NCBI RefSeq assembly: GCF_041248615.1
Contig: NZ_CP158426.1
Origin: Escherichia coli
Lineage (GTDB): Bacteria; Pseudomonadota; Gammaproteobacteria; Enterobacterales; Enterobacteriaceae
DNA length: 64,000 bases
Reading direction: 5' to 3' (one strand)
Position 1 is the first letter of the stretch. Each line of letters starts with the position of its first letter. Below the pieces are notes generated by a model. It made no database searches. It worked only from the letters and a program-made list of their open reading frames with translations, and was not told where the DNA came from. Below, in pieces: positions 53,399 through 55,378 of the stretch. A program made the translations under genes and the position numbers.

Positions 53399-55378
53399 TC
53401 AGGTGCCGATTATGCCGCCGTCGGCTTTTACGATAACGACAGTTGAGGAGCGCGGACGACCAGCCTTATCGCCGTCAGGCCAGCTTGATACTGCCGTCGG
53501 ATGCTGCGGATCGCTAAGCCCTTCGCTTGGCTCGCCAGGGTGCTGGATGTTAATAAACAGCGTCCGGTTATCCGGAGTGAACGCGATGCCGGTGATTTCG
53601 CAGCCGCGCGGGCCGGTCAGGAAGCGGCGGAACTCATTGGTACCGGGAATCGTCGCCACCATCTGGTTGTTGCCCATGCCTTTGTAATCTTTAATATTTA
53701 TGGTTGATGACGACACGTCGGTCTGGATCCATAGCACGCCGCGGTGATCAAAGCTCAGGCCATCGGCGCTGCCGAATTCCGCACCCTTCATGCTGCCTTT
53801 GGTTTCCAGTTTGTCTGTATCGGTGCGACCGCCCATCACAAGAATATCCCAGGCAAACTGCAGCGCGGTCGGGTCACCGTTATGCTCCAACCAGTGAATG
53901 ATGTGGCCGTAAACGTTTTTGGCGCGCGGGTTGGCCGCATCCACTGGCGCTTTTCCTTCCTTACCGCGATCGCTGTTGTTGGTGAGCGTGCAGTAAACGC
54001 TGCCGGCGTGATATGGATCGACCGCAATCCACTCCGGGCGGTCCATTTTAGTGGCCCCCACGGCGTCTGCCGCCAGACGGGTTTTAATCAACAGGTCGCC
54101 CTGGTTTTCAAACCCTTTACTGGCGTCGAGCCCATTTTGTCCGAACACCAGCGGTAGCCACTCGCCTTTGCCGTCGTCGTTAAATTTCGCCACGTACAGA
54201 GTGCCTTTTTCCAGCAGGTGCATGTTGGCTTTGCGATCCTGCGGGTTGAATTTTCCTTCCGAGACAAATTTATATATGTATTCGAATTTCTGGTCATCGC
54301 CCATATAGACCACAACGCGGTTATCCGGGGCAATTGTCACCGCTGCGCCTTCGTGTTTGATGCGACCAAGCGCGGTGTGCTTGCGCGGCACTGAATGCGG
54401 ATCGTATGGATCGATTTCCACCACCCAGCCGAAGCGGTTCGGCTCGTTCGGCGTGGCGTCGACGCTGAACCTTTTATCCACTTCGTTCCAGCGGTAAGAG
54501 TCGTCGCTCCCGCTGATACCGTAACGTTTTTCCAGCGGGTTCATCTCTGCTTTTTTTACGAAAATATCGGACCAGTTCTCTTCACACGTCAGATAGGTGC
54601 CCCACGGCGTAAATCCGTTGGCACAGTTCTGCATGGTGCCGAGAATGATTTCGCCTTTCGGATCGTCAACTGTTTGCATCAGTGGGTTATGCAGCGCCGG
54701 ACCGGTGATTTTCATCGGCGTGTTAACGGTGATGCGGCGTGCGAACGATGACGGGCGCACCACTTCCCAGCCCAGGGGCACTTTTTTTACTTCAATGACC
54801 GACACGCCCATCGCGTTCTGGCCTTTAAGAGCTTTATCGGCGCTCCAGTTGGCATCGCCATCTTTAAACAGTAGACCGTTATCGATGTATTCATGGTTTA
54901 TGGCAAGCAGGCCGTGATCGGAGCTGTTCCCGCCCTGCGGCAGGCTAAACCACGCCATGCCGTCGTGGTGCATCCCGGCCTGCGCCGCCTGTTCTTCCGT
55001 GGTGTTGCTACCGTCGGTTTTAAAAACCGGCAGATTTCCGGCAATCCCGGTGGCGTCGCCCCATTTGTAGAAGGGCTTCGCGATGTATCCTTCCGGCACG
55101 ATAACGGTATCTTCCGTGGAAACCGGCAGGCTGGTGAAACCGAGCGTCGTCGCTTTGCCGAGGTTACCGCTTGCTTTGGAGACCACTTTCGCCAGCGCGT
55201 TTTCCTGTTTCAGCAGAAATGGGAACGCTGCCGCGGCACCGGCGACCGTGCCTGCCTGTAACAGACGGCGGCGTGACAAATAGACTTCCGCCACCTGCGA
55301 AAACGCGCGGTTATCGCTCGGGTTACTGATTTCTTCACTATGCTCACGTTTGAATAAAGTTTTTAACGGTCTGCCCAT
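53399..55378 (-). CDS. Tat-signal secreted protein, probable PhoX/DUF839-family phosphatase
   Basis: Intact 659-aa ORF; twin-arginine motif SRRRLLQAGTVAGAAAAFPF near N-terminus (true start may be downstream of first ATG); contains NCANGFTPWGTYLTCEEN-type motif I associate with COG3211 PhoX proteins. Confidence 0.55.
   Translation of the reverse strand: MGRPLKTLFKREHSEEISNPSDNRAFSQVAEVYLSRRRLLQAGTVAGAAAAFPFLLKQENALAKVVSKASGNLGKATTLGFTSLPVSTEDTVIVPEGYIAKPFYKWGDATGIAGNLPVFKTDGSNTTEEQAAQAGMHHDGMAWFSLPQGGNSSDHGLLAINHEYIDNGLLFKDGDANWSADKALKGQNAMGVSVIEVKKVPLGWEVVRPSSFARRITVNTPMKITGPALHNPLMQTVDDPKGEIILGTMQNCANGFTPWGTYLTCEENWSDIFVKKAEMNPLEKRYGISGSDDSYRWNEVDKRFSVDATPNEPNRFGWVVEIDPYDPHSVPRKHTALGRIKHEGAAVTIAPDNRVVVYMGDDQKFEYIYKFVSEGKFNPQDRKANMHLLEKGTLYVAKFNDDGKGEWLPLVFGQNGLDASKGFENQGDLLIKTRLAADAVGATKMDRPEWIAVDPYHAGSVYCTLTNNSDRGKEGKAPVDAANPRAKNVYGHIIHWLEHNGDPTALQFAWDILVMGGRTDTDKLETKGSMKGAEFGSADGLSFDHRGVLWIQTDVSSSTINIKDYKGMGNNQMVATIPGTNEFRRFLTGPRGCEITGIAFTPDNRTLFINIQHPGEPSEGLSDPQHPTAVSSWPDGDKAGRPRSSTVVIVKADGGIIGT

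Follow-up and report, generated by a model that had tools for sequence, protein, structure and literature searches.

The island in the rrfF-yhdZ spacer

The window, a stretch of 64,000 nucleotides of Escherichia coli DNA (NZ_CP158426.1), carried an island between rrfF and yhdZ. Its limits were placed at 50433-57707, correcting earlier bounds. The features in and next to it were as follows.

50425..50432, no strand: left target-site duplication ATCAAATC, 8 bp, present as a single copy in the K-12 rrfF-yhdZ spacer
50433..51747, plus strand: intact IS1414, 1315 bp, left end GAGCCTGT..., right end ...ACAGGCTC
50505-51713: IS1414 transposase coding sequence, intact (RefSeq 'IS256-like element IS1414 family transposase', WP_072847535.1)
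51220..51336, plus strand: astA (EAST1 heat-stable enterotoxin) open reading frame, 38 codons, intact, in another frame inside the transposase gene
52079..52745, minus strand: ABC transporter ATP-binding pseudogene, frameshifted (RefSeq)
52748..53302, minus strand: 'iron ABC transporter permease' pseudogene, N-terminally truncated (RefSeq)
53303..55478, minus strand: Cronobacter-like patch, 2.18 kb, comprising phoX, about 100 bp 5' of it and 96 bp 3' of it
53347..53372, minus strand: intrinsic terminator 3' of phoX, CAGGC-GCGGTTA-GCCTG followed by a T-run
53399..55378, minus strand: phoX, an intact ATG-initiated open reading frame of 659 aa
55190..55378, minus strand: predicted Tat signal peptide, residues 1-63, from TIGR01409 and sequence features
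55386..55390, minus strand: phoX ribosome-binding site AAGGA, 8 nt 5' of the start
55432..55437, minus strand: putative -10-like hexamer TAGACT, 10 nt 3' of the Pho-box-like site
55448..55465, minus strand: Pho-box-like site TTGTTATA-TTTC-CGTAAC, two 7-mers with an 11-bp period, from comparative alignment
55801..56010, minus strand: C-terminal remnant of an IS110-family transposase (NF033542, E 2.8e-4, well under the cut-off)
56021..56724, plus strand: transposase pseudogene, frameshifted, truncated and with an internal stop (RefSeq)
57176..57505, plus strand: C-terminal remnant of an ISL3-family transposase (RefSeq; NCBIfam NF033550, E 4e-9)
57645..57707, plus strand: diverged 3' remnant of an IS1414-like element, with the codons GDRLDGHF* and the right inverted repeat
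57708..57715, no strand: right target-site duplication ATCAAATC, the second copy flanking the block

Among the non-IS cargo of the island, phoX was the sole intact gene. The first-pass annotation had reported an intact 659-aa frame amid decayed neighbours, and both points agreed with what was found: the frame ran from an ATG at exactly these coordinates on the minus strand, and the ABC ATPase, the permease and two transposase fragments were all frameshifted or partial in RefSeq. Its description of phoX as the only undecayed gene was correct for the non-IS cargo, but not for the island as a whole, in which the IS1414 transposase and the embedded astA were also intact. By tblastn the astA product was identical to prototype EAST1 at 38/38 residues; this arrangement within IS1414 has been described (PMC12585946). 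The RefSeq record carried no annotation for the astA frame. A scan of the island with Rfam returned only the rrnD 5S and tRNA genes.

The K-12 spacer, continuous between rrfF and yhdZ and holding one ATCAAATC, represented the empty site, and the earlier claim that K-12 lacks phoX at this locus thus stood. In the island, the ends GAGCCTGT.../...ACAGGCTC, with ATCAAATC on both sides, were those of a transposition product of IS1414 (IS256 family). On the right, the mobilised block ended in the IS1414-like remnant, which matched the final 63 nt of IS1414 at 85.7% identity and was identical to it over the terminal TAAACAGGCTC.

A donor copy of the block was found in the same chromosome, that of strain NRZ14408, with a query spanning the donor junction. 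It lay at 2.46 Mb, 1.9 Mb away, and was identical at 7276/7276 positions. The pheV island (900-972 kb) was also searched for a second phoX copy, and none was present there. The IS1414 of the donor block had its own target-site duplication, GACAGTTG, for which SFE8 provided the empty site, and two further identical IS1414 copies flanked the donor block. PKF11 and PKF4 had the donor configuration only.

These results suggested that the 7,275-bp block (7.3 kb) was recently copied by IS1414 into the rrfF-yhdZ spacer. An intact IS1414 would have inserted beside the block in NRZ14408, and the transposase would then have paired the left end of this element with the right inverted repeat of the IS1414-like remnant 6 kb off. 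The segment copied in this way would comprise IS1414 with astA, the dead ABC genes, phoX and the dead transposases. The situation resembles the compound-transposon-like behaviour of IS256-family elements, which mobilise adjacent DNA by way of a surrogate or remnant end, in its intact IS1414 with prototype astA, its 8-bp duplications and its multiple identical copies. Compared with IS1414 alone, the moved unit is larger (7.3 kb against 1.3 kb), and its limit on the right is a diverged 63-bp remnant, not the right end of the element itself. IS1414 is actively amplifying in E. coli (PMC12585946); no description of a 7.3-kb IS1414-to-remnant unit was found in that paper. Tandem amplification was considered as a source of multiple phoX copies, and none was seen around the GF60 copy.

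A PhoX-type protein with a predicted Tat signal

Residues 80-615 matched the Pfam PhoX model PF05787 over its full length (E 1.2e-165, 553 bits, model positions 2-515 of 515). The crystallised PhoX of Pseudomonas fluorescens (PDB 3ZWU_A) was matched with E 2.2e-167 (query 70-658 against chain 2-585), at 50.1% identity over 569 aligned residues; 4AMF was matched as well. The PhoX/DUF839 assignment, made at first from remembered motifs, was borne out by these matches, and the sequence places the product among the genuine PhoX-type alkaline phosphatases (PF05787/COG3211). It is unexceptional within this known family, and public annotation already names it as a member (RefSeq 'PhoX family protein', WP_000533456.1). 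A beta-propeller fold was implied by the 50% identity to the solved structure, which extended over the whole mature chain.

The conserved positions were examined in 44 orthologues. All 163 invariant columns defined from them were retained in the E. coli protein (163/163), and no deviation was seen in the near-invariant columns. Sixty-two of the invariant columns were D, E, N, H, C, R, K or T, and the retention of the whole set served as a proxy for a full comparison of the cofactor ligands. One ligand was compared by name: Cys179 of 3ZWU, which we take to be the number of the iron ligand in P. fluorescens PhoX, aligned with C252 in the conserved QNCANG motif. Three further cysteines were conserved between the two proteins. 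The E. coli protein had no counterpart to three others, at positions 116, 199 and 513 in P. fluorescens PhoX. In PhoX, Fe3+ is bound through the cysteine thiolate (PMC4223295).

The family likeness to PhoX of P. fluorescens Pf0-1 (3ZWU, 4A9V, 4A9X, 4ALF and 4AMF) is full-length and includes the N-terminal twin-arginine signal. The motif SRRRLL occupied residues 35-40 (nt 55259-55276), and SRRR[FL]LQ was kept in all of the PhoX relatives aligned. TIGR01409 scored 17.8 bits against a curated cut-off of 16.7, in keeping with the twin-arginine signal claimed at the outset; the match to the Pfam TAT_signal model was weak (E 0.016). The h-region, AGTVAGAAAAFPFLL, was moderately hydrophobic (mean Kyte-Doolittle value 1.67), and it was accompanied by a long conserved n-region, Lys57 in the c-region and an ALA motif. 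Cleavage would be expected at ALA|K.

The n-region, with 33 residues before the RR motif, is longer than that of P. fluorescens PhoX. These 33 residues were conserved in 20 other Enterobacteriaceae PhoX orthologues, which argued that the start codon was correctly placed. The (A)AGGAA ribosome-binding site was likewise kept in 21/21 aligned orthologues.

The chemistry and the Tat export of the family have been described (PMC4223295). By homology, folding of the E. coli protein and insertion of its Fe3+/Ca2+ cofactor would take place in the cytoplasm, and the folded enzyme would pass through TatABC into the periplasm by virtue of its twin-arginine signal. There it would free phosphate from organic monoesters. 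The predicted role equals that of PhoA of E. coli, which also acts in the periplasm as a phosphomonoesterase within the phosphate-starvation response. The two folds are unrelated, however, and PhoA uses two Zn, Mg and a serine nucleophile and is exported by Sec, whereas PhoX uses two Fe3+, three Ca2+ and an oxo group and is exported by Tat (PMC4223295; PMC12594817). PhoX may therefore offer its carrier a zinc-independent alternative to PhoA. A literature search turned up nothing specific to PhoX of E. coli or of the Enterobacteriaceae.

An activity other than that of a general phosphomonoesterase was also considered, for PF05787/K07093 is reported to hold many paralogues, and a PhoX of Alteromonas showed weak mono- and diesterase and detectable sulfatase activity (PMC12594817). 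Substrate profiles also differ among PhoX proteins (PMC5768637). The product might accordingly be a diesterase, a sulfatase or a nucleotide-specific enzyme. We regarded this as highly improbable in view of the 50% identity, along the full mature length, to the characterised monoesterase of P. fluorescens, the retention of every invariant column, and the Pho boxes of orthologues, which fit a role in phosphate starvation.

Origin and upstream region of phoX

The patch that carries phoX was of Cronobacter-like origin. In blastn it was 91.8% identical to Cronobacter universalis locus L083 over 2180 bp, and nothing beyond this length was matched. The Cronobacter orthologues (C. universalis ELY3465661.1, and those of C. 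malonaticus, C. sakazakii, C. turicensis and C. dublinensis) were about 96% identical in amino acid sequence and stood in their native chromosomal context. They had in common with the E. coli gene the length of 659 aa, the promoter block, the ribosome-binding site and the terminator, the last of which was conserved in the plasmid allele as well. The dN/dS of phoX against Cronobacter was 0.064.

In Cronobacter, phoX has an MFS transporter gene on one side and a MetNIQ-like ABC operon on the other, and in P. fluorescens it belongs to the core chromosome. In contrast, the E. coli gene lies on IS-rich accessory DNA, as a 2.18-kb patch only, adjoining a truncated and unrelated permease gene. The truncation point of the permease adjoined the patch, and the Cronobacter homology ended at 53303.

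The decayed ABC genes were considered as native partners of phoX, for example as a phosphonate or sugar-phosphate importer, and were rejected. The Cronobacter homology stopped at the permease junction, the Cronobacter neighbour was a MetNIQ-type system, and the fragments matched only generic PotA/PhnT2/ferric ATPase models. The matches of the ATPase fragments to the PotA/PhnT2-type models were far under the cut-offs.

The patch contained what appears to be a self-contained single-gene unit: a Pho-box-like site, a -10 hexamer, a ribosome-binding site, the coding sequence and a terminator. This unit came from a Cronobacter-like chromosome and became lodged in the IS debris of an E. coli genomic island.

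The Pho-box-like site was detected by comparative alignment of orthologue upstream regions only. A block TGTTATA-N4-TGTAACA was conserved upstream of phoX in 21 enterobacterial orthologues. Positions 55465-55448 read TTGTTATATTTCCGTAAC, with 5 mismatches at the 14 specified Pho-box positions; agreement with the consensus was thus 9/14 in the allele here and about 10/14 in relatives. At the equivalent position, orthologues of Neisseriaceae, Pasteurellaceae, Wohlfahrtiimonas and Lysobacteraceae had a near-canonical CTGTCAT-N4-CTGTCAT, with 1-2 mismatches. The mean best Pho-box mismatch was 3.95, against 6.07 in background windows, a difference of which the significance is overstated by the phylogenetic relatedness of the orthologues.

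A PhoB-box scan of 55379..55560 had been proposed with the first-pass annotation. A Pho-box-like site was present in this interval; a search for CTGTCAT-N4-CTGTCAT with up to 3 mismatches found none near phoX, and the count across the 64-kb window was at chance level.

The second half-site differed by a T>C change (plus-strand G at 55453) from Cronobacter and from the E. coli alleles AR_0085 and 26561; it reads CGTAACA here and TGTAACA in AR_0085. The affected TGT position was T in 20/20 enterobacterial relatives, and PhoB control may therefore be weakened in the allele here. The same change was seen in AH65.

The site could instead be an operator for a different regulator, such as ArcA, another OmpR-family protein or a palindrome-binding repressor, with phoX of Enterobacteriaceae outside the Pho regulon. 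ArcA sites consist of TGTTA repeats, and direct repeats of the kind seen here would suit an OmpR-family regulator such as ArcA. In all enterobacterial orthologues both half-sites lacked the C of the TGTCA core (TGTTA and TGTAA), and the site could be read equally as an inverted repeat, TGTTA-N8-TAACA. Against this, the distant orthologues had near-canonical Pho boxes at the equivalent position. A distance of 10 nt from Pho box to -10 is the spacing rule of PhoB-activated promoters, and the same 10 nt were found here. The Pho-box consensus has two CTGTCAT 7-mers, an AT-rich 4-bp spacer and a -35 position, and the 7+4+7 geometry matched that of PhoB-activated promoters (PMC4447250). We considered a regulator other than PhoB the less probable choice, although one to be taken seriously; phoX is probably induced by PhoB under phosphate starvation.

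Selection on phoX and its meaning

The gene was present in 98/5426 complete E. coli genomes. In all 98 carriers (98/98) both of the internal phoX segments used as queries were matched at full coverage, with the annotation PhoX, and the island or plasmid settings of the gene were of at least three kinds. The exact protein was encoded on at least 998 contigs. About 370 further E. coli records kept only a 112-bp relic, and most E. coli had no phoX. Any selection on it would therefore be specific to a lineage or niche.

The intactness of phoX amid decay had been taken at first as a sign of ongoing selection. This argument failed, since the block was a copy with 0 mismatches that moved after the other genes had decayed, and intactness within the island says nothing on selection by itself. 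The same caution applies to any intact gene in a freshly copied block.

The conclusion was nevertheless upheld by comparisons among E. coli alleles. Chromosomal alleles differed at 9-12 synonymous and 2-3 non-synonymous sites (dN/dS 0.05-0.10; binomial P 2e-4 to 1e-6, with a neutral N:S ratio of about 3.4:1). The dS of phoX was 2.0-2.7%, near the 0.9-2.2% divergence of the dead flanks, and dN was 0.13-0.20%. With dN far under dS, and dS matching the divergence of the dead flanks, phoX was under purifying selection in E. coli.

These comparisons bore on the possibility that phoX is a passive hitch-hiker, intact since its acquisition or duplication was too recent for decay, and of no benefit to E. 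coli. Several observations suit such a history. The two NRZ14408 copies differed at 0/7276 positions; a 5.96-kb module was 99.9-100% identical in SFE8, PKF11 and TUM1886, and 100.0% identical in the top ~26 module-only records listed; and the gene is missing or reduced to its relic in most E. coli. However, in allele groups with common capture junctions, synonymous divergence equalled flank divergence and non-synonymous divergence was about tenfold lower. In some lineages the neighbours had decayed further and phoX was intact there, and a second allele, on plasmids and independently captured, was also intact. A passive history thus appeared distinctly improbable.

The reading that we prefer, with a probability of roughly 85%, is that phoX encodes a functional Tat-exported phosphomonoesterase in a Cronobacter-like, self-contained and probably PhoB-induced unit, within a block copied by IS1414.

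Its import is modest. Some E. coli lineages would have a second alkaline phosphatase, of different metal needs, under purifying selection in a gene graveyard. Such an enzyme would bear on phosphate scavenging in niches poor in zinc or replete with iron, and on PhoA-based assays in carrier strains. The block itself offers a clean and datable case in which IS1414 would have moved 6 kb of adjacent DNA together with astA by way of a degenerate remnant end.

A broader scenario seemed to us unlikely as a whole. It would have phoX captured at least twice from Cronobacter-like bacteria (the island and plasmid alleles), then maintained, and multiplied in about 20% of its carriers, largely poultry-associated. 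The Fe/Ca phosphatase would pay off under zinc withholding or with plentiful organic phosphate, and the T>C change shared with AH65 would retune induction. The 7.3-kb segment from IS1414 to the remnant would itself be a functional transposon, not described before, that carries astA and phoX along together.

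Identity of the phoX product

The ORF listing of the window contained an ATG-started ORF of 659 aa on the minus strand, with the exact limits 53399..55378 reported for phoX in the first-pass annotation. The start is preceded, at a distance of 8 nt, by the ribosome-binding site AAGGA. The start codon is correct, because the first 33 residues, which precede SRRRLL, were conserved in an alignment of 20 orthologues from other enterobacterial genera.

The PhoX/DUF839 family, previously assigned from motifs, was borne out by a Pfam profile search, in which PF05787 (PhoX) covered the product with the whole model (E 1.2e-165). 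The solved structure of P. fluorescens PhoX (3ZWU) matched from residue 70 to the C-terminus (E 2e-167; 50.1% identity). Its Cys179, the iron-ligating residue, corresponded to C252.

In an alignment with 44 orthologues, from Enterobacteriaceae, Neisseriaceae, Pasteurellaceae, Moraxella, Wohlfahrtiimonas and P. fluorescens, the window protein retained 163/163 invariant columns, with 0 deviations at near-invariant ones. The claimed twin-arginine signal also held: the NCBIfam model TIGR01409 scored 17.8 bits (curated cut-off, 16.7), and SRRRLL is accompanied by a mildly hydrophobic h-region, a c-region lysine and an ALA motif at 61-63.

Phosphomonoesterases of the PhoX type use a 2 Fe3+/3 Ca2+/oxo cofactor, and are thought to take up iron in the cytoplasm before leaving via Tat (PMC4223295). 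A literature search found no experimental work on PhoX in E. coli. RefSeq names the product (WP_000533456.1) "PhoX family protein", and the exact sequence is present on at least 998 contigs. The family and Tat-signal assignments are already in the public record; the product is an ordinary PhoX protein that had been annotated before this analysis.

IS1414 and the duplicated block

The window corresponds, with a 100% match, to positions 512001-576000 of NZ_LT599825.1, the chromosome of E. coli NRZ14408. The insertion that carries phoX sits between rrfF (the distal 5S gene of rrnD) and yhdZ, a spacer uninterrupted in K-12. An octamer that occurs once in the K-12 spacer is found at either edge of the insertion:

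50425-50432 and 57708-57715, target duplication octamer ATCAAATC, from comparison of the window with the K-12 spacer

Directly inside the octamers are GAGCCTGT... at the left and ...ACAGGCTC at the right. The leftmost 1315 bp of the insertion is an intact IS1414, and the rightmost 63 bp is a diverged IS1414-like 3' remnant (85.7% identity, terminal 11 nt identical).

A second copy of the whole 7,276 bp was found at about 2.46 Mb in the same chromosome, that of strain NRZ14408, with 0 mismatches, embedded in a large integrase-bearing island. In this donor copy the IS1414 is flanked by a separate 8-bp duplication, GACAGTTG; the matching empty site is present in strain SFE8. Strains PKF11 and PKF4 have the donor configuration only, and none of the other complete genomes among the 5426 searched had the block at rrfF-yhdZ. 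In the annotation of NRZ14408, four IS1414 copies share an identical transposase protein, and the element is amplifying in E. coli (PMC12585946).

The simplest reading of the block at rrfF-yhdZ is copying by IS1414 in two steps. IS1414 would have inserted beside an old phoX-bearing module, and its transposase would then have acted on the left end of IS1414 and the right end of the remnant as a pair, copying the whole segment to rrfF-yhdZ. The description of the "island" as a 7.3-kb IS1414-mobilised duplicate also carrying astA is a modest addition.

phoX had been called the only undecayed gene of the island. The ABC ATPase, the permease and two transposase fragments near it are indeed frameshifted or truncated in the RefSeq annotation, but the IS1414 transposase gene (CDS 50505-51713) is intact, and so is the following ORF:

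51220-51336, plus strand, astA (EAST1), an intact 38-codon ORF inside the IS1414 transposase CDS in another frame

It is identical to the prototype EAST1 heat-stable enterotoxin at 38/38 residues, and its embedding in the IS1414 transposase gene has been described (PMC12585946). The ORF is without annotation in the RefSeq record of the window. NRZ14408 carries at least four copies of this astA-bearing IS1414.

In the donor locus (L095, NRZ14408 2,457,965-2,480,903), a third identical IS1414 lies inverted, 16 bp past the remnant end (18891-20205), and the donor module thus has an intact copy on each side. Despite this, the end of the transposed unit is the remnant, not the third IS1414. Strain TUM1886 (L091, ~5690-7006) has an independent IS1414 in opposite orientation at the equivalent of window 51814-51821, where the matches on either side overlap by 8 bp, which suggests a separate target duplication. 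IS1414 insertions beside this module therefore recur.

Origin of phoX and selection on its alleles

The closest relatives of the product outside E. coli were chromosomal Cronobacter PhoX proteins (~96% identity), followed by those of Franconibacter and Siccibacter (~80%). In C. universalis, phoX is neighboured by an MFS transporter gene on one side and a MetNIQ-like operon on the other. The DNA match to this locus (91.8%) was confined to window 53303-55478, phoX plus roughly 100 bp of flank at either end, and ended exactly at the start of the permease pseudogene, which lacks its N-terminus. The gene is therefore a 2.2-kb piece of foreign DNA that brought a promoter region and a terminator of its own and has no relation to the decayed genes around it. 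The Cronobacter origin of this single-gene patch is a modest addition to public knowledge.

The first-pass annotation had read ongoing selection from an intact gene amid decay. This argument fails: the island was copied recently from a block in which the rest of the genes had already decayed, so intactness in the window is uninformative. Past purifying selection, on the other hand, is shown by the E. coli alleles.

Two internal phoX segments were used as queries, and 98 of the 5426 complete genomes carried the gene, at 120 places; full-coverage matches were annotated PhoX in 98/98 carriers. The alleles comprised 94 chromosomal ones at ≥99% identity and four plasmid copies of a ~94% allele. The chromosomal allele groups have common capture junctions and differ in the extent of neighbour decay. 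Between them, phoX showed 9-12 synonymous and 2-3 non-synonymous differences (dN/dS 0.05-0.10; binomial P 2e-4 to 1e-6 against a 3.4:1 neutral expectation). Its dS (2.0-2.7%) is of similar size to the divergence seen in the dead flanks (0.9-2.2%), whereas dN is 0.13-0.20%. Against Cronobacter, dN/dS was 0.064. The plasmid allele (WP_024222956.1, ~94% nucleotide identity) is intact; its junction differs, with the first Pho-box half-site removed, and it is an independent capture. Together, the allele differences, dS and dN relative to the flanks, the Cronobacter ratio and the intact plasmid allele show that phoX has been under purifying selection within E. coli, again a modest addition.

A general benefit of phoX is disfavoured by its absence from most E. 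coli. That poultry-associated lineages maintain the Fe/Ca phosphatase in a niche-specific way, carried by a functional astA-phoX transposon, is speculative and rather improbable.

About 20 of the 98 carriers have 2-4 copies. The copy examined in strain GF60 (L096) is in another island type (eptX, outer membrane protein, permease pseudogene, phoX), and no tandem amplification was seen there. The hosts in 60 listed carrier records were chicken/poultry in 30 and human in 16, as raw counts that include some duplicates of one strain.

On plasmid NZ_CP141865.1 (L086, 3179-6779), phoX and an intact "esterase-like activity of phytase family" gene are convergently oriented; the two are possibly an organic-phosphate module flanked by IS debris. 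Also against a general benefit, about 370 E. coli records, chromosomes and plasmids, retain no more of phoX than a 112-bp internal relic, located next to an autotransporter gene. Equivalent to window 54405-54516 (~91-93% identity) and annotated as an "alkaline phosphatase" pseudogene (e.g. C41(DE3), L092 2973-3113), it resembles the alleles of Cronobacter and of the plasmid more closely than that of the window. The plasmid appears to hold the undecayed arrangement.

A Pho-box-like site upstream of phoX

A scan for a PhoB box had been proposed. The strict pattern gave no match upstream of phoX, but orthologue alignment revealed a Pho-box-like conserved block. In 21 enterobacterial orthologues, TGTTATA-N4-TGTAACA was the sole conserved block in an otherwise unalignable upstream region, followed after 10 nt by a -10-like hexamer. 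PhoB sites consist of two CTGTCAT-related 7-mers with an AT-rich 4-bp spacer (PMC4447250), a geometry that the block shares. More distant families had near-canonical boxes at the same distance to the start codon, e.g. CTGTCATCATCTTGTCAT and CTGTCATAAAACTGCCAC. Over 57 loci, the best match upstream of phoX averaged 3.95 mismatches, versus 6.07 in background windows, with a nominal P inflated by the relatedness of the sequences. In the window the site is:

55465-55448, minus strand, Pho-box-like site TTGTTATATTTCCGTAAC, from comparative alignment

Its second half-site has a C at a position that is T in Cronobacter, in every other enterobacterial orthologue and in the E. coli alleles AR_0085 and 26561. 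Two Neisseriaceae orthologues also carry CGTCAT there, so the change need not disable the site. PhoB control of the window phoX is the best inference, and the comparative evidence for a putative Pho box is a modest addition.

A further TGTTATA half-site, TCTGTTATATAA, was seen about 110-125 nt past the phoX stop, after the terminator, in the C. universalis locus (L083) and the plasmid. It is missing from the window copy because the Cronobacter homology ends before it, and is possibly a regulatory site of the next gene.
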